Shown here: piece by piece, positions 2,418 through 57,916 of the stretch
Numbering within the stretch: the stretch's first letter is position 1
Layout: each line of letters starts with the position of its first letter
Sequence record: OM135583.1
Reading direction: 5' to 3' (one strand)
Length of the DNA stretch: 64,000 nucleotides
Source of the DNA: Escherichia phage EP01
Program-made: the position numbers and the translations under genes
The notes under the pieces: generated by a model
Databases searched by the model: none
What the model was told of the DNA's origin: nothing
What the model saw: only the letters and a program-made list of their open reading frames with translations

Positions 2418-2447
2418 ATTATACCACATCCTTGTGGTAAAGTAAAC
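2418..2447 (-). promoter_or_regulatory. sigma70-type early promoter (GTTTAC -35, 17-nt spacer with CCACA/TGTGG palindrome, GGTATAAT -10)
   Basis: Plus strand attatacc...gtaaac; drives rIIA.1-rIIA. Confidence 0.7.
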
Positions 2448-45383: not shown

Positions 45384-45687
45384 TTTCTTCTCGGTTAAAT
45401 CGGTGTTTGCAATGACGACATTTATAACAAAGATTACTAGTCTGCCAATGAACTAATTGTACCTGTTCGGTACCACATTTTGGGCAGTTCGGAACATTCT
45501 TAGAAGCCCTTTCGCGGCGTTCAACCATAACCATAATGGCATCCCAAGCAGGAGGTTTAAAATCTAAATCGTCACAACCATGAATCTTTCCACGCATTTC
45601 CAGATCGTCTTCTTCACCAGCCATAATAATTTTAATTAGACTGGAATTACTTGAAGCTGCAATATCTTCTAATAAGCGCTTTTTCAT
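45370..45687 (-). CDS. zinc-finger protein, 105 aa
   Basis: CPKCG...CYKCRHC four-Cys motif. Confidence 0.5.
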
Positions 45688-46613
45688 TTCAATACCTCAA
45701 TAGCATTACGTAAACCATTTGCTTTGGCGGTTAAAGCCTTAAAAACTTTAGTATGCTCTTCAATCTGTTTTTCAACTTCAATTAAGCGTGTATTAAGATA
45801 TTCACGTTCTTCACTCAGGTTATCAACCTTTTCTACTTTAGGTTCTTTTACAACTGGCTTATATGTATTAGGGTTCTTCAGTTTAATTAGAATGCGTGAA
45901 CTGTACAGCATTGAACCATTATCTTCGGTTTCGTCATACATTTCCACTACGTCCATCATCTCCACCATCGTGCAGAGTTTATAAGACAACGAACGAATAG
46001 TTTTGTTATGCTTATTAATTTCTCTAGCTGTCATGGTGCCGAGATTACGTGAGTAATAATAAGGAACCTGGATATTAATTAATACTGATGAACCACCTGG
46101 CTTGTGTGTTACTTCATCAGCAATAACCCAGTCCTTAACATGAACTGTATTTGTACGGTCATCGCCCGCGGTAAATAGTTTACGAGCATGCTTAAAAAGC
46201 ATATTCACTTGGTCATTGAATTGACAAGCGAATTTATCAGCAAATTTAGTTTCAGGAATGGTAGATAACCAATCAGCCAAATGGGTCTTTTTAACATCGT
46301 TAACAATGGTAAATTCAACCAAATCGGTTATAGATGTCGCAGATTTAATGAAGCTCGGCTTCATAAAGTTTTTAATGTTATCACTAGCTACAGTAGAAGA
46401 TAACAGACGAGAACGTTTAAACCATTGAAGCAAATTGCCTAACGAATGAGAATAAGCGTTTTGAGTATCTTTACAGATATGATTTTCCTGCCCAACATAT
46501 TGAAGGAAATCACGAAGAATATTATTGATTACTGTTCTGTGTCCGATCTGATAATTACGGTGTTTAGTAATAAGACTGTCAAAATAATCAATATAATGTT
46601 TACGAGTTTTCAT
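45684..46613 (-). CDS. hypothetical protein with C-terminal coiled coil, 309 aa
   Basis: ORF track; heptad-like C-terminus. Confidence 0.55.
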   Translation of the reverse strand: MKTRKHYIDYFDSLITKHRNYQIGHRTVINNILRDFLQYVGQENHICKDTQNAYSHSLGNLLQWFKRSRLLSSTVASDNIKNFMKPSFIKSATSITDLVEFTIVNDVKKTHLADWLSTIPETKFADKFACQFNDQVNMLFKHARKLFTAGDDRTNTVHVKDWVIADEVTHKPGGSSVLINIQVPYYYSRNLGTMTAREINKHNKTIRSLSYKLCTMVEMMDVVEMYDETEDNGSMLYSSRILIKLKNPNTYKPVVKEPKVEKVDNLSEEREYLNTRLIEVEKQIEEHTKVFKALTAKANGLRNAIEVLK

Positions 46614-46665
46614 GTTCTTCTCACTTGGTTAATGATTTATGCTCCGAGCCATCCTTGGCTTTAAA

Positions 46666-47667
46666 TTACTTAATTAGCTGTAAAGCTTGTTCCAAACGAT
46701 CAAGGCGATTAACAGATTCTTCCCAAATCATTTTAGCCTGCTCATATTCTTTCTGCGCTTTATTAGAAATTTCTAGAGCATCTTTATAAGCTTTTTCTAG
46801 TGCAATAACTTCTGGACGAATTTCTATCGGTTCAGGTGAATCATCAAGATTATCCATTAGTTCCTCAAGGGTAGTTTCTTCTTTAGGAGTATTCACAATT
46901 TCATCACATTTTTGTTGGTAAATTTCTTTATCAGTCGGTGAATAAGCGCATTTCACTTCACGAAGGCTAATTATAATTTTATATCCTTCCCAACCACACA
47001 TATTCTTAAAAGGATAAGTATGAATATTTTCTACCGTTTCCATACAAAGTAATGCGGTTTCTAATTGACGAGTTATAGTGCTAGCAATTGAGAAAAATTT
47101 ATTAATATTCTTTTGGTTAGTTTCTGGTGTAAAAAATCCATAATTCACAAAAATAGATACTTTATTTTTATCAAGTTCATATTCTTTTATGATAATCATA
47201 TCAGAAGCCAAAGGATGAATTTGACGATAATCGCCATAACATAATTTAGAAGCTGATTTTAGAATCTGTCCTTTGAAAAGTCTGAAATTACTAATCCAAC
47301 GACGAGTAAAAATATTCTCAGGGTCTTCTTTATTATTAAGATGATAAGAATTAACATCACCGAACCAATTATATCCTACTACATCTTTGGTTCGTTTAAT
47401 TTCTTTCCCAAAATTACCAAGAATATCCCGATTAACCAAATATGAAAGAAGACGAGACTCTTTAAAGGTTTTCTTGATAACATCTTTATCTACACGGCTA
47501 GAAATTTTACGAATTTCATGAATAAATTTAGCAGAAGAAACAATACTCGCGTCAACGCTATTGAGCCATTGATTGATAATAGAAATAACGCTATTTTGAC
47601 CAAACACCGGTATAGCTTTATCATCAATAACACTATTGAATGATTTGATATATTCGTTACGAGTCAT
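46666..47667 (-). CDS. hypothetical protein with C-terminal coiled coil, 333 aa (start trimmed)
   Basis: Track ORF ran into the upstream promoter; ATG at 47667 behind GAGGAG. Confidence 0.55.
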   Translation of the reverse strand: MTRNEYIKSFNSVIDDKAIPVFGQNSVISIINQWLNSVDASIVSSAKFIHEIRKISSRVDKDVIKKTFKESRLLSYLVNRDILGNFGKEIKRTKDVVGYNWFGDVNSYHLNNKEDPENIFTRRWISNFRLFKGQILKSASKLCYGDYRQIHPLASDMIIIKEYELDKNKVSIFVNYGFFTPETNQKNINKFFSIASTITRQLETALLCMETVENIHTYPFKNMCGWEGYKIIISLREVKCAYSPTDKEIYQQKCDEIVNTPKEETTLEELMDNLDDSPEPIEIRPEVIALEKAYKDALEISNKAQKEYEQAKMIWEESVNRLDRLEQALQLIK

Positions 47668-47695
47668 ATTAATCTCCTCAGTAGAAAGTAAGAAC

Positions 47696-47725
47696 ATTAT
47701 ACCACATCCTTGTGGCAAAGTAAAC
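47696..47725 (-). promoter_or_regulatory. early promoter, near-identical to the one at 2418-2447
   Basis: ataccacatccttgtggcaaagtaaac; about 28 of 30 nt shared with the 2421-2450 copy. Confidence 0.7.
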
Positions 47726-48753
47726 TAGTTCAGTGCATTTAGTGCATTGTTCAGTTTAGAACGTTGCTTCGTAAGATTTTTGACTTTTTCTTGAGCTTTT
47801 TCTAGCATCTTTTCAGCTTCTAACACTTCATTAGTTGCTTTAACTAGTTCATCATCTACTGCTTTAAGAGAATTCTCAATCGCATCTGCATGCCATTTTT
47901 CAACAGGTTTAAGACTCGGATTTTCAACAGGAAGAAAACTCACTTTATTAAGTTTACATGCATCTATATTGCTTGAGCTATACATCCAAAATTTAGGATC
48001 GTTTGATGAGTAATTGGATAAATTTAAATTTAAGTTATCTTGCACTTCCTGCTTTTTCTCTTGCGGGACTTCGTCCTTTCTCAAAAAATCGTATTTAAAT
48101 GAAACGATCATATCAAGTTCATATGTTGTTGTGTCTAATTTAAATCGCTCAAAACGAGGTAAAATCTTAGACTGAACATCGGCAACAACATCCATATACT
48201 TAAATGCTTCTGTCAACTGCGATTTAAGGCATTCGCAAATTGAAAGAGAATTTTTTGTATTAGGTTTAAAGCTAATTCGTGCAGTTCTATTATTTTCTTT
48301 TAATGGTCTTACTTCCATCTGAAGAGTATAACCATCAAATTTCAGATTCTTTAAGTTAATATCAGAACCTTTTAATCGACTCGCAGTTGATAAAATTTGC
48401 TTTAATTGTCTACGGAACAGAGCAATAAATCTCCATTCAATACGATAATGATTTGGATTGAAAAATCCAGATGATAAATCGACCTTACTTTGACCAACGC
48501 CTTGAACAAATAGAGGATTTTTATAATCAATAGTTTTACAGAAATCGGTGAGCTGCTCACGAGCAGTCATTTGCGTAATATACCCTGCTTTACTAAAATT
48601 ACGCACCCATTCACTGCTATTCGTATACTTAAAGTGATGAATAACACGATTAACTTTATCAGGGTCTAAATTATTTTCACACAAAAATGTCATAACATCA
48701 CGAGTATAACTGGCATTACGAACCTTATCTTCAATTTGAGAACGAGTTTTCAT
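47725..48753 (-). CDS. hypothetical protein with C-terminal coiled coil, 342 aa
   Basis: ORF track. Confidence 0.55.
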   Translation of the reverse strand: MKTRSQIEDKVRNASYTRDVMTFLCENNLDPDKVNRVIHHFKYTNSSEWVRNFSKAGYITQMTAREQLTDFCKTIDYKNPLFVQGVGQSKVDLSSGFFNPNHYRIEWRFIALFRRQLKQILSTASRLKGSDINLKNLKFDGYTLQMEVRPLKENNRTARISFKPNTKNSLSICECLKSQLTEAFKYMDVVADVQSKILPRFERFKLDTTTYELDMIVSFKYDFLRKDEVPQEKKQEVQDNLNLNLSNYSSNDPKFWMYSSSNIDACKLNKVSFLPVENPSLKPVEKWHADAIENSLKAVDDELVKATNEVLEAEKMLEKAQEKVKNLTKQRSKLNNALNALN

Positions 48754-48761
48754 AGTGTTCC

Positions 48762-49667
48762 TTAAGATTTAAGTAAATCAACAATTTTAATTAATTTTTC
48801 ACGCTCAGATTTAGCTTTATTACTCAATCCAGATAGTCTGAAAATTTCATCGTCATACTGTTGAATAGAAATATTCAGCTCTTCAATTTGCTTATTAAAA
48901 TAATCAATTTGTTCAGAATGTTTTTCATTACTACGAACTGGTACAGGTTTCGTAAGCAATTTAGTTGAACTGGATTCATCCGGGCGATAAATCAAAATAC
49001 AATTTGAACCAATCGGGCATTTTGTACCAGATGAATATTCTAATGTTCCAGCTTCTTTTAAAACTTCAAAAGCTAAACAGAGATGATGCCCCATATTAAC
49101 ATAATCTGTAGAGTGAGCTCTGATGTAATAATCATCTCCACGAATACTAAATTTAAAGCATTTAAGGTCTTCTGTATTATTGGTCTTAAAAATCATTTGT
49201 TTATCTAGACCTTTAGCTAATCGAGCGCCCAATGCTAATAATCGTCGTTGATTTTCCCACAAATCCGCAATCATTTGATCGAATGATAATTTCGGCATTA
49301 GTCGACCATAAAGGTCATATCCTTTATTATAATTACGAAGGATTTCACTCGCATTAATACGAGACAATGCTCCAATTTTATTAAGGGCTTTCATAATGCG
49401 ATTAGATAAACTCATTCCAGATCCGCTTGTTCGCTGTAAATGTTTTTCTAATCCAAAGCCAATATCAACTTTAAACTTATCTAAAATTTCGGCATGAACA
49501 TCTCTGTCAATAACATTCAAATCCAAAGTTGGGTTAAATCTATGAAAAAATTTATCTGGCTCTCCACGACGAAATACAGTCCATTCATTCATCATTTTTT
49601 TATTAACTAAAGATTTAATTACTGCATTGACATTATTAATTACTACTGACATATTTTCCTCACTCAA
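48762..49667 (-). CDS. hypothetical protein with C-terminal coiled coil, 301 aa
   Basis: ORF track. Confidence 0.55.
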   Translation of the reverse strand: MSEENMSVVINNVNAVIKSLVNKKMMNEWTVFRRGEPDKFFHRFNPTLDLNVIDRDVHAEILDKFKVDIGFGLEKHLQRTSGSGMSLSNRIMKALNKIGALSRINASEILRNYNKGYDLYGRLMPKLSFDQMIADLWENQRRLLALGARLAKGLDKQMIFKTNNTEDLKCFKFSIRGDDYYIRAHSTDYVNMGHHLCLAFEVLKEAGTLEYSSGTKCPIGSNCILIYRPDESSSTKLLTKPVPVRSNEKHSEQIDYFNKQIEELNISIQQYDDEIFRLSGLSNKAKSEREKLIKIVDLLKS

Positions 49668-50061
49668 TTTTACTAATTACGTGGAATAAGATTGAACAGA
49701 CTATATAAGTACCACATATAGATTGAACTAATGCCATTCCAAAGAACCAAACAATATTATCAAACAGTGTCTGTTTTACGTCGAAAGGACGTAAACTTAC
49801 AGTAATATTATCACCTTTTTCTATTGAAGAATACATCTCTGGGGAAATATATTCACTAAATCTATAACCGTCTTTAAGTTCATATACAGCAATAAACGAT
49901 AAACTAGACCCCTTTCCTTGTGTTCCTGTAATGGTATTAACTACAGTAACATCATAATCTTTATAGTGCATATAATCATTAATTGCGTAATAACCATATG
50001 CAACTACTACACATAAACAACATATCAATAAATTCAATCTTTTAATTATCAACTGTTTCAT
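49660..50061 (-). CDS. membrane protein (N- and C-terminal TM), 133 aa
   Basis: Hydrophobic segments at both ends. Confidence 0.5.
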   Translation of the reverse strand: MKQLIIKRLNLLICCLCVVVAYGYYAINDYMHYKDYDVTVVNTITGTQGKGSSLSFIAVYELKDGYRFSEYISPEMYSSIEKGDNITVSLRPFDVKQTLFDNIVWFFGMALVQSICGTYIVCSILFHVISKIE

Positions 50062-51108: not shown

Positions 51109-52089
51109 TTATTTCAGAAGAGTAACCTCAGCAATTTCTTCCCAACCGTTTTTGTCGGTCATAATAAAGTCAGCAAGATAAAGAGCAGTACGCAGTGAAA
51201 CATTTCGTAAACGATTAACATTAACTTTCATCCATGATAATGCTTTATAAGTTTCTTCATCAGAAAGACCGCGCTTTTGCATCATGTCAGTTGAAAGAAT
51301 AACATCTTCAACCCTGACCATAATTTCTTCATTAGTGTGAACACCCAAATCCAAATAAACTGAGCGGGACACTAATGCTTGTAAGTGTGGAGCAAGTTTA
51401 GTACCACGGTCTAATTCGCGGTCAATGTCAACGTTTGTGATAAAAACAATCGTTCCTTTAAATTCAAACTCACGGTCAATGCCTTTTTCTTCTAAGTAAG
51501 AAGATGCAGTGCTCCAGCAGACTTTACGGGTCTCTCCAGTGTCCAGAGCAGCTTTTAGAAGATTAAGAATGTCCATATCAGAGAAAACATCCACATCATC
51601 AATCAAAAGGACAGAATTCTCTTCACGATTATTCCAAAGCTGTTCATAAAGACCAATACCAGAGATTTTACCATTAATGCTTTTATATTCAATGTATCCA
51701 TTATCATTTGCTTTATTTAAAGCTTTATCTAAAGAATACGTTTTACCAATACCTGCTGCGCCAGAGATAATTAATGAACGAATATTTCCATTAATAATAC
51801 CATTCGTCATCATTCCCATAACATTAAATCTTTTATTAATGCGGGTTTTCATATCTTCATATGATTCTTTAACTTCTTCAACTTTTACACCATCATATGA
51901 AATATCTGATTTGTAAACCCAAACACCGCGACGTTTACCGTCAATTTCAACAAAAACTTTACCATCTCCTTGTGCATCTACCGGAGCATTATCTGGGAAC
52001 CATTCGCCTAAAAGCTCAAAAGTTCCAGAGATTTCTTTACCGAAGTAGATACCCTTATTGATAGTTACAGTTTTCATTTTATTCTCCAA
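51109..52089 (-). CDS. P-loop ATPase (Walker A GAAGIGKT, Walker B LLIDDVD), 326 aa
   Basis: Walker motifs; MENKM N-terminus downstream of repeated promoter cassette. Confidence 0.6.
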   Translation of the reverse strand: MENKMKTVTINKGIYFGKEISGTFELLGEWFPDNAPVDAQGDGKVFVEIDGKRRGVWVYKSDISYDGVKVEEVKESYEDMKTRINKRFNVMGMMTNGIINGNIRSLIISGAAGIGKTYSLDKALNKANDNGYIEYKSINGKISGIGLYEQLWNNREENSVLLIDDVDVFSDMDILNLLKAALDTGETRKVCWSTASSYLEEKGIDREFEFKGTIVFITNVDIDRELDRGTKLAPHLQALVSRSVYLDLGVHTNEEIMVRVEDVILSTDMMQKRGLSDEETYKALSWMKVNVNRLRNVSLRTALYLADFIMTDKNGWEEIAEVTLLK

Positions 52090-52205: not shown

Positions 52206-52691
52206 TTATTCCATTTCTACTATATGCATGTTCTTTTTGCTATCAAAATATATGTTTTTAACTATTAACTCAGAATTAATTGGCAGTAAAAACTCTCTTT
52301 CATAATCTACCATACAAAGATTATCATAAAGCTTGTTAAGCTTATCATCGTCAGTTTGGCCAGATTCTTCAATTGCGATTAAATTTTCTAAAATGTCAAT
52401 CATAGCAGTCGAATAGTCAAAAACGTTTGCATTTTTTAACACTACTAAAACATTAGTCATATAGCGTTCTGCAGCAAACGTTTCAGCTATATGAGACTCA
52501 CTGCTAAAGGAAGTTATTCTTTTAAATTTGATTCTCCTATTAACTTCAAACTTATAAGATAGCACTTCCTCTATTGTAAGTCCTCTAAAAAGTATGTCTT
52601 TAATCTCAAGTTTGTCTTTAATGTAATCATTAACACGCTTATGATTAAAATCATTAATTTTGTTGCCAAGGCATTGCATTAAAATATGCAT
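52206..52691 (-). CDS. hypothetical protein, 161 aa
   Basis: ORF track; promoter upstream, hairpin downstream. Confidence 0.5.
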   Translation of the reverse strand: MHILMQCLGNKINDFNHKRVNDYIKDKLEIKDILFRGLTIEEVLSYKFEVNRRIKFKRITSFSSESHIAETFAAERYMTNVLVVLKNANVFDYSTAMIDILENLIAIEESGQTDDDKLNKLYDNLCMVDYEREFLLPINSELIVKNIYFDSKKNMHIVEME

Positions 52692-52816: not shown

Positions 52817-53830
52817 TCATTTATAATAACTTCGATGGTTTTCAAGATACACCCTCTCAAGGAAGTCATCCCAGAAACCCATGTCTACTTTTTGCTGCAT
52901 ACCGTTCTTAGAAGCTTCAATTGATGCTGCTTCTACTTGATCGACCACATCTTCCAAAAACTCTTGAACCGTTTTAAATGGATGTTTACCCAACTTCACG
53001 TCGAGAATAAATGGAGCATCTTGGAGTGGATAGACTAAGTCACCAGTTTTGTAAATTTCCAATAGTTGGAGTCCACCGCGGCAAGCATGACTCAGTGCTT
53101 TCCAGTCAATGCCCTCATTCGCTTCAGCTTTACGAGCACGTTCGCCGTATTCAGCATCAAGTTTATTCAAAGACTGCTTAAGCTCAATAAGAGAAAGAGT
53201 TGTCTGATATTTACGACCCAACACAGTATAGAACATTTGTGGGCCTGTTTTCTCATGATTATGGAACACCCATTCACAGAATTCGTTTTCTGGAAGACGA
53301 TGTTTAATATCTTCTACACGAGTACGACGTTGCTTAGTCGAACCATCTTCTCGGTAATCAACCCACTGATCGGGGATTTGATTAACTACTTTCAATACAT
53401 CACGTAATGCAGCCAAACGAGAACCCTTAACACCATATTTAGAAGCTTGCTTGCGGACATATCCTAAATAGGATTTCATGTTAGTCGTATAAAAACGAGA
53501 ACGATTGTCTTGAATAAACTTCCATACATCAGGCAAATCAGATTTAACCACTAGCTCAGGTGGAGTGTGAAGCATATCCAATGCTACAGTTTCACCATCT
53601 GCTGCTAATTTAAAGAAATACTTAAGACTGTATAGTTCATGGTCAATATCATCTTTAGTGTTTTTAGATGATGTGTTGTTAGTGTTTTTACTCATATGCT
53701 CTTTAACATTTCCGATAAGAATATCACGAGCAGGAGGAACAAAGATTTCTTTAAAATCTACATCAGATTCTGGAGTAGAAGTTCCATAAAGATGACTACC
53801 AAAATAGCTTTTCATTACTGTTTTCATCAT
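52817..53830 (-). CDS. Pol-beta superfamily nucleotidyltransferase-like protein, 337 aa
   Basis: N-terminal GSHLYGTSTPESDVDF (GS-x10-DxD) then DIDHE acidic cluster; helical C-terminal half. Confidence 0.6.
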   Translation of the reverse strand: MMKTVMKSYFGSHLYGTSTPESDVDFKEIFVPPARDILIGNVKEHMSKNTNNTSSKNTKDDIDHELYSLKYFFKLAADGETVALDMLHTPPELVVKSDLPDVWKFIQDNRSRFYTTNMKSYLGYVRKQASKYGVKGSRLAALRDVLKVVNQIPDQWVDYREDGSTKQRRTRVEDIKHRLPENEFCEWVFHNHEKTGPQMFYTVLGRKYQTTLSLIELKQSLNKLDAEYGERARKAEANEGIDWKALSHACRGGLQLLEIYKTGDLVYPLQDAPFILDVKLGKHPFKTVQEFLEDVVDQVEAASIEASKNGMQQKVDMGFWDDFLERVYLENHRSYYK

Positions 53831-54288
53831 TCAGCCTTATATTCAATAACAGGACATACTTTAGCTTTACGAGCTTTTAAAAATTCGACGATAATAGATT
53901 TCTTGGGTTTAATAGGAGGTAAACCTTTATACGCCCTATCAATATTTTCTACATGTAAAGCATAATCCTTTTTCCATTTATAATCTTTATATTTTTCATG
54001 TAGTTGTGCAGGAATAACAAATGAACCAATAATAAGTAAAACAAGCAAAATGGCAAGTATAAATGCTGATGGAATAAGAGTCCATAAACTACCAAAAATA
54101 AGCCATTTCTGCATGATTTCTGCGCAGATGATAGTTAGACCTGCGAGTATAGTACATCCGAAAAAAGAAACGAAAAATGTAGGAATAACAATAGACCAAA
54201 AATATGCACACAGTGTCTTAGGTCGTTTCCATTCATCATTAAACATTTTGAATAATTTATAGTGCCAAGAGCTTTCATTAATAATCAT
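53827..54288 (-). CDS. small 2-TM membrane protein with basic cytoplasmic tail, 153 aa
   Basis: Two long hydrophobic segments; stop overlaps nucleotidyltransferase start (ATGA). Confidence 0.55.
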   Translation of the reverse strand: MIINESSWHYKLFKMFNDEWKRPKTLCAYFWSIVIPTFFVSFFGCTILAGLTIICAEIMQKWLIFGSLWTLIPSAFILAILLVLLIIGSFVIPAQLHEKYKDYKWKKDYALHVENIDRAYKGLPPIKPKKSIIVEFLKARKAKVCPVIEYKAE

Positions 54289-54290
54289 AA

Positions 54291-54812
54291 TTATCCTTTC
54301 ATTGAAGGTGTAACAGTTGTTAAATACTTAATCATAGCTTCAGCTTCTGATTTTGATAATGAAATTTCTCCATTGTTTTGACGAATAGAAATAAAATCCG
54401 GATGACGGTCACCACCAGCTTTTAAAACACACATATAAGTATCAGTTTCATCTTCAATATCTGAAATGATTGAAGCAGTTCCGCATGAATGTGGTTTTTG
54501 ATAAATCAATACAGCTTTTCTTCCGCCATTTGACTGTTCATAAACTTTTAACACATCAAACAAATCACTTCTTTTATCAATAGCTAAAATGTTATTTTCA
54601 TCTTCAATGTTAAATCCTTCGGATACTTCATAAAGTGTCACCCATAAATCACCGATGTCAATAACAGCATTTACTTTTCCATGACTTTCAAGAGCACGGC
54701 AAATTTTCTTGATTTCGTCATAACTCATTTTAATAATATCATCTCCTTGAATAAGGAAGATGTCATTTTTAAATTCAACACGAATTAAACCGCTTTCACT
54801 TGAAATAAACAT
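54291..54812 (-). CDS. hypothetical protein, 173 aa, paralogue of the next gene
   Basis: Shares GFNIE(D/S)E core and C-terminal (S/T)K(S/D)EA.A.K.YL..V.P(S/T)M with the 185-aa neighbour. Confidence 0.55.
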   Translation of the reverse strand: MFISSESGLIRVEFKNDIFLIQGDDIIKMSYDEIKKICRALESHGKVNAVIDIGDLWVTLYEVSEGFNIEDENNILAIDKRSDLFDVLKVYEQSNGGRKAVLIYQKPHSCGTASIISDIEDETDTYMCVLKAGGDRHPDFISIRQNNGEISLSKSEAEAMIKYLTTVTPSMKG

Positions 54813-55376: not shown

Positions 55377-55510
55377 AATTACATACTCCTTTGAATAATA
55401 TCAATAATGTTGTTCACCAGATTATAAGTAAACATTGGGTAATTATATTGAATCATCACATACACAACAAACAAAACTTTCATTCTCTTCTCCTTGGCAG
55501 TTGACAAGAT

Positions 55511-55717: not shown

Positions 55718-55901
55718 TATTCCACCTAATCATTTCAAGATATTGAACTAACTTAGCTTTGGATTTATCCAAATCCTTTTTAGCCGCTTCTATACCATCG
55801 TATGAATATCCTTCACAATGCTCAACTGCCAATTGGTATGAATCTATTTCAATATCACGTGCTAATTTAATGATTTTTTCAAACTGTTCACGTGTTAGCA
55901 T
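55707..55901 (-). CDS. hypothetical protein, 64 aa
   Basis: ORF track. Confidence 0.4.
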   Translation of the reverse strand: MLTREQFEKIIKLARDIEIDSYQLAVEHCEGYSYDGIEAAKKDLDKSKAKLVQYLEMIRWNNEN

Positions 55902-55903
55902 AC

Positions 55904-56143
55904 TTAAACTCTCGTATTGTGATCGATAATTTCATCAAGAAACATATCTAAAGCTTCTACAGCATTATCAACTTTAGCTTCAAGTTCTTCAGCGCCTTTA
56001 TTTGCAATGCCTGCCGAAAACCAAGCAAAGTCACTAAGTTCCTCGTCTGCTTTGCGAATTAAAGCTACCAATTCTTTAATTTTATCTGCTTGTTCTATAC
56101 TAAGCATTATTCCACCACATATGAAAGAGAGAACATTGCACAC
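55904..56143 (-). CDS. hypothetical protein, 79 aa
   Basis: ORF track. Confidence 0.4.
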
Positions 56144-56295
56144 GCCATATGAGTTGCAGCTTCATCACACATATCATAACGTTTCTTAAGAAGTTCTACA
56201 AGCTCTTCACTGGTAACTTCATCCATGTCGACGAAAAAATCACCATTAATGATGACGTAGATATTTCCTTCTTGATTAAGTGCTTCAATTTTCAT
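56107..56295 (-). CDS. hypothetical acidic protein, 62 aa (start trimmed)
   Basis: Track ORF ran into promoter; ATG at 56295 behind GAGGAG. Confidence 0.4.
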
Positions 56296-56322
56296 GATGT
56301 TCTCCTCTTTATCCGATGGTTG

Positions 56323-56353
56323 TATAGTATCACAGCTCAAATGGAAAGTAAAC
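56323..56353 (-). promoter_or_regulatory. early promoter
   Basis: Plus strand tatagtatc...gtaaac. Confidence 0.55.
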
Positions 56354-56369
56354 CGGTAAAATGAAAAAA

Positions 56370-56385
56370 GTCTCCCGAAGGAGAC
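56370..56385 (-). terminator. UUCG-tetraloop hairpin
   Basis: gtctcc-cgaa-ggagac. Confidence 0.45.
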
Positions 56386-56390
56386 TAATG

Positions 56391-56777
56391 TTATTCGAGG
56401 GAAAGAAGATACTTACTTTGATAAAACATTCCAGTAATATCATCTATCGTGCTTTGAATGGCTGGAGGCATTTCTTTGTAAATGCTGTTAGATTGGTCTA
56501 GTATACGATCAATCATTTTAATTGTGTCGGTAGGAAGTTTACTAGCATCTGGAATTGAAGGTGTGTATTTTCTACCAGAATACCCCAAATATTGCTCACC
56601 AAATTTATCAATCAAATCTGGCAACTCGGAGAAAATAAAATCGTATGCTTTGTGTCTAGCATAACTTTTAGTTTCAAAATGTGCAGAATGAAAATAAGCT
56701 TGTGCAGCCATTAATAAACCTAAGTATTCATCTGCCTTTGAAGGTTTTCCACTTTGTGAAAAGTCGCTGAATTTCAT
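56391..56777 (-). CDS. hypothetical protein, 128 aa
   Basis: ORF track; overlaps rI stop. Confidence 0.5.
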
Positions 56778-57067
56778 TCAGTCTCCAATTTAATGTTCAT
56801 AATTCTAGCGTATGATTGTGCCATCTCCGCGCCTCGCTCTATACATTCAAAATCGGAAGAGCACGGGTCATTTTTATAGGTCGTTCGCATAAAACTATAG
56901 AACTGTTCAGATGATTCTACGCTTTTATTTTCAAAAAGCATATAAACGTGTCTAATACCAGATTCCATAAATTTATCAAAATGAGGATCGACATTCGCTT
57001 CAATCGATGGAGATAAAACAAATGACAATCCTAGCATGGCAAAAAGTGCCGTTGCTTTTAAGGCCAT
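56774..57067 (-). CDS. rI: lysis inhibition regulator rI, 97 aa
   Basis: MALKATALFAMLGLSFVLSPSIEA signal anchor; 97 aa; matches T4 RI. Confidence 0.9.
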   Translation of the reverse strand: MALKATALFAMLGLSFVLSPSIEANVDPHFDKFMESGIRHVYMLFENKSVESSEQFYSFMRTTYKNDPCSSDFECIERGAEMAQSYARIMNIKLETE

Positions 57068-57334: not shown

Positions 57335-57916
57335 CTAACCAAGCTTTTTAGTTAATTCATTCCAATGTTTTCTACACAAAGAAACATAAATTTCATCACC
57401 AATACAGATTTGATCACCTTCTTTAACTGGTGTTCCATCTTCCATTAATCGAGCTGTCATAATCGCTTTTTTACCGCAATGACAAACTGCCTTCAGTTCA
57501 ATAAGTTTATCTGCAATCGCCAAAAGTTCTTTAGAACCTTCAAATAATTTTCCGGCGAAATCAGTCCTTAGACCATAAGCCATAACAGGAACATTATATG
57601 TATCGACAATTCGGCTTAATTGATGCACCTGTTCAGTTTTTAAAAACTGTGCTTCATCTACAAATACACAATGAATATCTTTTTGTGCTTCAGCCCATTT
57701 ATAGAACTCAAAAATATCCATATCATCTGTAATAATATTCGCTTCCTGTTTAATTCCAATGCGAGAAACGACTTCACAGACAGAATCGCGAGTATCAATA
57801 GCAGGCTTAAGAACTAATACACTCATTCCACGTTCTTTATAATTATGCGCAGCAGTCAAAAGAGAAGCAGATTTTCCAGCATTCATTGCTGCATAAGTAA
57901 AAATTAAACTCGCCAT
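57335..57916 (-). CDS. tk: thymidine kinase, 193 aa
   Basis: P-loop AAMNAGKS and C-terminal zinc-ribbon cysteines; 193 aa. Confidence 0.95.
   Translation of the reverse strand: MASLIFTYAAMNAGKSASLLTAAHNYKERGMSVLVLKPAIDTRDSVCEVVSRIGIKQEANIITDDMDIFEFYKWAEAQKDIHCVFVDEAQFLKTEQVHQLSRIVDTYNVPVMAYGLRTDFAGKLFEGSKELLAIADKLIELKAVCHCGKKAIMTARLMEDGTPVKEGDQICIGDEIYVSLCRKHWNELTKKLG

Follow-up and report, generated by a model that had tools for sequence, protein, structure and literature searches.

Where do genes begin when their reading frames run open into their own promoters? This question is raised by two open reading frames of Escherichia phage EP01 (OM135583.1). The window analysed here is a 64,000-nt stretch of this Tequatrovirus (T4-like) genome, and the genes of the region compared lie on its minus strand. 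An ORF listing, which we reproduced, gives frames 46666..47718 (350 aa) and 56107..56340 (77 aa), both on the minus strand and both opening with TTG. The preliminary description held that these frames begin inside promoter elements and should be trimmed to the first ATG preceded by a Shine-Dalgarno (SD) sequence, giving starts at 47667 and 56295. We find that the raw ORFs are very probably by-products of a rule that takes the first ATG, GTG or TTG after a stop, and that the genes concerned, nrdC.4 and mobD.5, start at the two downstream ATGs.

The surroundings are typical of the genus. Megablast against GenBank phages finds that approximately 500-650 Tequatrovirus genomes match 45600-49700 and 55900-56800 at 90-99% identity, and comparison with T4 (NC_000866) gives the gene order after tk as rI.1, rI, rI.-1, mobD.5, mobD.4 and mobD.3, then further on nrdC.11, and further still nrdC.6, nrdC.5, nrdC.4 and nrdC.3 (Table 1). 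NrdC.4 is orthologous to T4 NP_049702, with the order nrdC.5 / nrdC.4 / nrdC.3 conserved, and MobD.5 to NP_049715, with synteny downstream of rI.-1 confirmed; identity to the T4 counterparts is 96% for NrdC.4 and 95% for MobD.5, full length and gap-free. NrdC.4 and NrdC.3 are paralogues and share one PHROG. Pfam has no family for NrdC.4 or MobD.5, and our search for relatives with a solved structure returned none for either protein. Many records of T4-like phages name nrdC.2-nrdC.6 'thioredoxin' and mobD.4/mobD.5 'molybdopterin-guanine dinucleotide biosynthesis protein MobD', but Pfam detects neither thioredoxin nor MobD-type domains in NrdC.4 or MobD.5, and these labels appear to derive from the locus names (nrdC.x, mobD.x), not from homology.

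Table 1. Features at and around the nrdC.4 and mobD.5 starts, in window coordinates and in the direction of transcription.
Feature	Position	Strand	Basis or remark
tk	57335-57916	-	order from T4 NC_000866 comparison
rI.-1	56391-56777	-	T4 comparison
rI.-1 stop TAA	56393-56391	-	sequence
Intrinsic terminator after rI.-1	56364..56386	-	AGTCTCC-TTCG-GGAGACT hairpin 56386-56369, then T run
mobD.5 T4-type early promoter	56324..56353	-	sequence and T4 early pattern; T4 orthologous site annotated
mobD.5 promoter -35 GTTTAC	56353-56348	-	sequence
Raw-ORF TTG (mobD.5)	56340-56338	-	within 17-nt spacer of mobD.5 promoter
mobD.5 promoter TGa	56332-56330	-	sequence
mobD.5 promoter -10 TACTAT	56329-56324	-	sequence
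Predicted mobD.5 mRNA 5' leader, 22 nt	56296..56317	-	sequence; transcription start inferred
mobD.5 Shine-Dalgarno GAGGAG	56307-56302	-	ATG 6 nt further on
mobD.5 CDS	56107..56295	-	ATG 56295, 62 aa, phrog_3024
nrdC.5	47725-48753	-	T4 comparison; belongs to DUF7235
nrdC.5 stop TAG	47727-47725	-	sequence
nrdC.4 T4-type early promoter	47696..47725	-	sequence and T4 early pattern; T4 orthologous site annotated
nrdC.4 promoter -35 GTTTAC	47725-47720	-	shares G of nrdC.5 TAG stop
Raw-ORF TTG (nrdC.4)	47718-47716	-	within 17-nt spacer of nrdC.4 promoter
nrdC.4 promoter TGg	47704-47702	-	sequence
nrdC.4 promoter -10 TATAAT	47701-47696	-	sequence
In-frame ATG (nrdC.4)	47697-47695	-	last bases of TATAAT plus G; overlaps nrdC.4 -10 box
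Predicted nrdC.4 mRNA 5' leader, 22 nt	47668..47689	-	sequence; transcription start inferred
nrdC.4 Shine-Dalgarno GAGGAG	47679-47674	-	ATG 6 nt further on
nrdC.4 CDS	46666..47667	-	ATG 47667, TAA 46668-46666, 333 aa, phrog_1435
nrdC.3	45684-46613	-	T4 comparison

The first point to settle is whether the raw starts do lie within promoters. Both TTGs sit in the 17-nt spacers of promoter-like elements, as had been described, and each element combines GTTTAC (TTTACW in sigma-70 register), the 17-nt spacer, TGn and TAnnAT. The elements point along transcription, with an SD sequence and ATG shortly downstream, and the distance from -10 box to ATG, 29 nt at both sites, equals the median of the window's 18 promoter/gene pairs. 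T4 early promoters are characterised in a published account (PMC2988021) as being of the -35/TGn/-10 type with UP elements. We searched the whole window for the T4 early pattern, GTTTAC-N15-TGnTAnnnT with at most one mismatch, alongside shuffled controls. It occurs 21 times, in every case on the minus strand, against a mean of 2.2 and a maximum of 7 in the shuffles, and the nrdC.4 and mobD.5 sites both match it with no mismatch.

Could such elements nonetheless be chance matches, with the genes expressed by read-through only and a position 'inside a promoter' devoid of meaning? A generic sigma-70 scan does give some reason for caution, being barely enriched in this AT-rich DNA (69 found versus 60.8 expected in shuffles); the nrdC.4 promoter appears in that scan as TTTACT-17-TATAAT with an upstream TG and 10 of 12 matches. 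The T4 early pattern, however, shows about 10-fold enrichment and never falls on the opposite strand, and motifs, spacing and position are kept across three genera in which the proteins are only ~45-50% identical. Moreover, the orthologous T4 sites are annotated early promoters, and a 5' end belonging to the mobD.5 promoter has been detected by primer extension: Durand et al. 2006 (PMC1702504) assign a reverse-transcriptase stop in RNA from T4-infected cells to this promoter and describe its transcript as insensitive to RegB. Coincidence is thus an exceedingly improbable explanation, and by the criteria of pattern and placement the two elements are T4 early promoters of the sigma-70 -35/TGn/-10 class. 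The GGAG in both SD sequences was also considered as a target of the RegB endonuclease, and set aside.

Two further features of the nrdC.4 promoter deserve comment. A hairpin in its spacer (47717-47700) looked terminator-like in a sequence scan, but has three G-C pairs only, lacks a proper T run and is built from bases within the conserved promoter, and was rejected as a terminator. Separately, another early promoter of the window (2447..2418, minus strand) is identical to the nrdC.4 promoter at 29 of 30 positions, whole spacer included (CCACAAGGATGTGG). That promoter likewise adjoins a TAG stop, while its flanks are unrelated to the nrdC.4 site, and the pair may represent a duplicated or exchanged promoter module.

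If the promoters are real, what of the TTGs within them? One possibility is that the raw ORFs are right and that translation from TTG 47718 and TTG 56340 yields proteins of 350 and 77 aa. The frames are open from both codons, one GenBank record (JLBYU24) starts a 234-nt mobD.5 at the TTG, and the record of phage Elenatom has a 29-aa remnant starting at the nrdC.4 TTG. Against this, no SD-like sequence lies upstream of either TTG, both codons are upstream of the predicted transcription starts of the promoters that contain them, and the mobD.5 site is additionally preceded by a terminator, which is also annotated in U76612.1 and SA20RB.

Comparison across phages bears directly on this possibility. 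The preliminary description had proposed checking annotated relatives, and we compared the starts of NrdC.4 and MobD.5 relatives by tblastn of GenBank phages, reaching other genera; both the T4 reference and these genera favour the downstream ATGs. Relatives of nrdC.4 in other genera keep GTTTAC...TATAAT, GAGGAG and an N-terminus of the form MTR(N/T)EYI, whereas the upstream frame is not conserved. In Gaprivervirus TH40 the stretch from the preceding stop to the nrdC.4 ATG (MTRNEY) contains no in-frame ATG, GTG or TTG, and in Dhakavirus AnYang an in-frame TAA lies nine codons upstream of that ATG; in all the Tequatrovirus relatives that we examined, the upstream frame of nrdC.4 stays open. For mobD.5, a C-to-T change in the leader of Tequatrovirus Kelasse creates an in-frame TAA upstream of the ATG, and in Gaprivervirus ECML-359 the promoter spacer contains an in-frame TAA and an upstream start is lacking. 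Five near-identical loci for each protein were found in IMG/VR, too uniform to test the upstream frame.

Protein family profiles likewise leave out both extensions. The 334-position profile phrog_1435 aligns, from its position 1, with residue 18 onwards of the 350-aa ORF, and matches the trimmed NrdC.4 at E = 3e-167 (residues 1-333 on profile positions 1-334 of 334). The 62-position phrog_3024 matches, again from position 1, residues 16-77 of the raw 77-aa ORF, and the trimmed MobD.5 at E = 2.7e-43 (residues 1-62 on positions 1-62 of 62). In the paralogue NrdC.3 (MKTRKHYIDYF...), residue 3 aligns to residue 19 of the 350-aa ORF. Finally, the mobD.5 leader is free of any annotated feature in nearly all of the annotated relatives sampled (see below). 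On these comparative grounds the TTG starts are refuted as a conserved feature, and we give translation from them almost no credence in EP01.

A more serious competitor exists for nrdC.4. The rule of taking the first ATG with an SD sequence, as originally put forward, picks the right codon at 47667 but is not strictly unambiguous, because a further in-frame ATG, at 47697, has AAGGA 9 nt upstream. NrdC.4 might start wholly or partly at this codon, as a 343-aa protein carrying the N-terminal peptide MFLLSTEEINMTR..., on transcripts that read through from upstream. The nrdC.5-nrdC.4 junction lacks a terminator, and read-through transcripts would therefore carry ATG 47697. However, nrdC.4's own promoter is predicted to start transcription downstream of this codon, and in read-through RNA the AAGGA would be held in the 7-bp hairpin formed by the spacer (47717-47700). 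Conservation also speaks against it: ATG 47697 is absent or out of frame in TH40 and replaced by an in-frame stop in AnYang, while the downstream SD/ATG and MTRxEY are conserved, and the PHROG profile begins only at residue 11 of the 343-aa form. Among the only variants seen in these ten additional codons are a radical Asn-to-Ile substitution and an insertion of 3 nt between SD and ATG.

The remaining argument for ATG 47697 comes from public annotation, which we surveyed with the leader alone as query in an evenly spread sample of 60 records, 57 of them annotated. A CDS covers the nrdC.4 leader in 22 of the 57 (~39%); no feature is annotated there in 33, and only a promoter or -10 feature in two. 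All four of the overlapping CDS that we checked start ten codons early, at the equivalent of ATG 47697: those of RB32, AR1 and SA20RB are 1032 nt long, and that of fPS-65 is 1035 nt because of a 3-nt leader insertion. SA20RB and fPS-65 also mark the nrdC.4 promoter site as a promoter. The AR1 record, however, states 'best matched to RB32', so the long form has been copied by homology in at least one record, and the 22 CDS reflect the choice of gene callers rather than experiment. Over the mobD.5 leader, by comparison, 55 of 57 annotated relatives sampled have no feature, one has a promoter and one (JLBYU24, above) a CDS.

Taken together, these observations make it very improbable that ATG 47697 is a real start, and were it one, its use would probably be minor. 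Slightly less probable again is the more general proposal that read-through allows Tequatroviruses to make a minor, N-terminally extended 343-aa isoform of NrdC.4 from this codon. If such an isoform did exist, the same six bases would have a double role, as a promoter element in the DNA and within a translation start site in the longer mRNAs.

Overextended starts occur in public records too, and the survey shows nrdC.4 annotated too long in a sizeable fraction of the Tequatrovirus genomes deposited. The point is practical rather than conceptual - where early regions of phages are dense with promoters, coordinates from a mechanical ORF list are unsafe guides to where genes start.

Does the reach of these frames into their promoters reflect selection for N-terminal extensions? 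Among ORFs of at least 40 aa, just these two begin within a promoter match; a 42-aa ORF at 55507 (mobD.2) opens between a -10 box and the predicted transcription start. For the 18 promoter/gene pairs, we asked whether the ORF rule would put the start on the predicted transcription start or upstream of it. It does so in the gene frame for three of 18 (nrdC.4, mobD.5 and the mobD.2 ORF) and in the two control frames for five and three of 18 (8/36 in total). Overextension is thus an accident expected of AT-rich leaders, with no sign of selected N-terminal extensions; the promoters themselves, unlike the overextension, are far above chance.

Other raw ORFs of the window, all on the minus strand, are overextended through the same rule. 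That at 55507 opens with TTG, the proper ATG of mobD.2 being at 55483, and that at 52089 opens with a TTG overlapping the SD sequence, the proper ATG of nrdC.10 being at 52077, in agreement with the T4 start. The frame at 56143 opens with GTG and trims to 56107 (mobD.4), and those at 49667, 25006 and 11510 trim to 49652 (nrdC.6), 24994 and 11498 respectively.

The following scheme would account for both loci. The frame of an early gene stays open by chance through its 5' leader and into its own sigma-70-type early promoter, whose spacer happens to hold an in-frame TTG that the ORF rule would take as a start. Transcription usually starts about 7 nt after the -10 box. Host RNA polymerase would accordingly be expected to start near 47689 and 56317: the predicted transcription start of nrdC.4 is A 47689, 7 nt past the -10 box, and that of mobD.5 is A 56317. 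Messengers initiated there would contain neither of the upstream TTGs nor ATG 47697. The leaders are predicted to be essentially unstructured (-2.8 kcal/mol over 40 nt for nrdC.4 and -0.6 kcal/mol over 40 nt for mobD.5), and ribosomes would attach to GAGGAG in the 22-nt leader, with initiation 6 nt further on, yielding NrdC.4 of 333 aa and MobD.5 of 62 aa. Under this scheme the downstream ATGs would be used exclusively in EP01. In the searchable literature we found neither N-terminal proteomics nor ribosome profiling for EP01 or T4, and no 5'-end data apart from the primer-extension stop at the mobD.5 promoter, and the conclusion on the starts, though strong, is therefore comparative and contextual. 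What the comparison does establish is that the upstream codons are ruled out as conserved starts.

How do the two sites relate to known phage systems? The published PeSL (promoter-early stem-loop) terminator/promoter cassettes of T4-like phages, as laid out in Arbiol 2010 (PMC2839356) and Comeau 2014 (PMC4122927), have a stem-loop just upstream of a TTTACW-N17-TAYWAT promoter and carry an SD sequence and a start codon at their 3' end. The mobD.5 site has this layout, with its hairpin at 56386-56369 and its promoter at 56353-56324. The nrdC.4 site departs from it in having no stem-loop upstream, because its -35 box abuts the nrdC.5 stop codon.

The PeSL layout recurs elsewhere in the neighbourhood, beside a gene that T4 lacks. 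In the interval from nrdC.11 to nrdC.10, which is empty of genes in T4, EP01 carries a 161-aa ModB-like ADP-ribosyltransferase gene (52206-52691, minus strand). On either side (52815-52738 and 52197-52115) it is bordered by a terminator hairpin and an early promoter, as a PeSL-type mobile cassette would be. Its product matches phrog_832 (E = 1.4e-23), is ~30% identical to T4 ModB and shows, by eye, R / S-x-S / E-x-E-like motifs; at 90% identity or more the gene is found in only ~43 phage records, T2 included. A second difference from T4 lies between mobD.1 and nrdC.11, where T4 has the homing endonuclease gene mobD and EP01 instead has, at 53827-54812 (minus strand), one gene for a y05I-like putative transcription factor of 173 aa (PF24449, PF24448) and another for a membrane protein of 153 aa (phrog_944).

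The nrdC.4 locus itself has been altered by deletion in Escherichia phage Elenatom (PP925844.1, locus 1195-1300), where nrdC.4 is missing. Codons 8-10 of nrdC.4 run straight into the nrdC.3 leader, the junction being an 8-bp direct repeat, AAATCATT, a microhomology whose copies correspond to window positions 47644-47637 and about 46636-46629. What remains is the nrdC.4 promoter and SD sequence before a 12-codon stub, followed by nrdC.3, and the record gives a 29-aa 'hypothetical protein' from the TTG in the promoter spacer. This microhomology deletion is unrelated to the PeSL cassettes.

T4 itself provides close counterparts of both sites. The T4 record U76612.1 carries minus_35 and minus_10 signals labelled 'early promoter 50.0' directly before nrdC.4, and a terminator followed by the -35/-10 signals of 'early promoter 57.9' directly before the 189-nt mobD.5, which that record names mobD.6. 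The trimmed EP01 starts match the CDS lengths of the T4 reference (NC_000866), 1002 and 189 nt. At nrdC.4 (NC_000866 49914..50915; U76612.1 8543-9602) the two phages share an identical stretch that opens with the nrdC.5 stop, takes in the -35 box, spacer, TGgTATAAT, leader and GAGGAG, and reaches codon 13 of nrdC.4; they differ only by scattered coding substitutions in the same 1002-nt CDS, and the raw T4 ORF would overextend likewise. At mobD.5 (NC_000866 58534..58722) T4 has the same order of hairpin, GTTTAC, 17-nt spacer, TACTAT, GAGGAG and ATG; two substitutions distinguish the spacers (CCAT/TGAT in EP01, CCGT/TGGT in T4), and the terminator tail is one T shorter in EP01. Since both promoters and both starts have stood in T4 records for decades, nothing here is new for T4 biology: the reading of the two sites is correct but already known, with promoters, terminator and starts in the T4 records and the cassette architecture published. 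What the present analysis adds to them is the comparative exclusion of the upstream codons as conserved starts and the survey of overextended nrdC.4 annotations.
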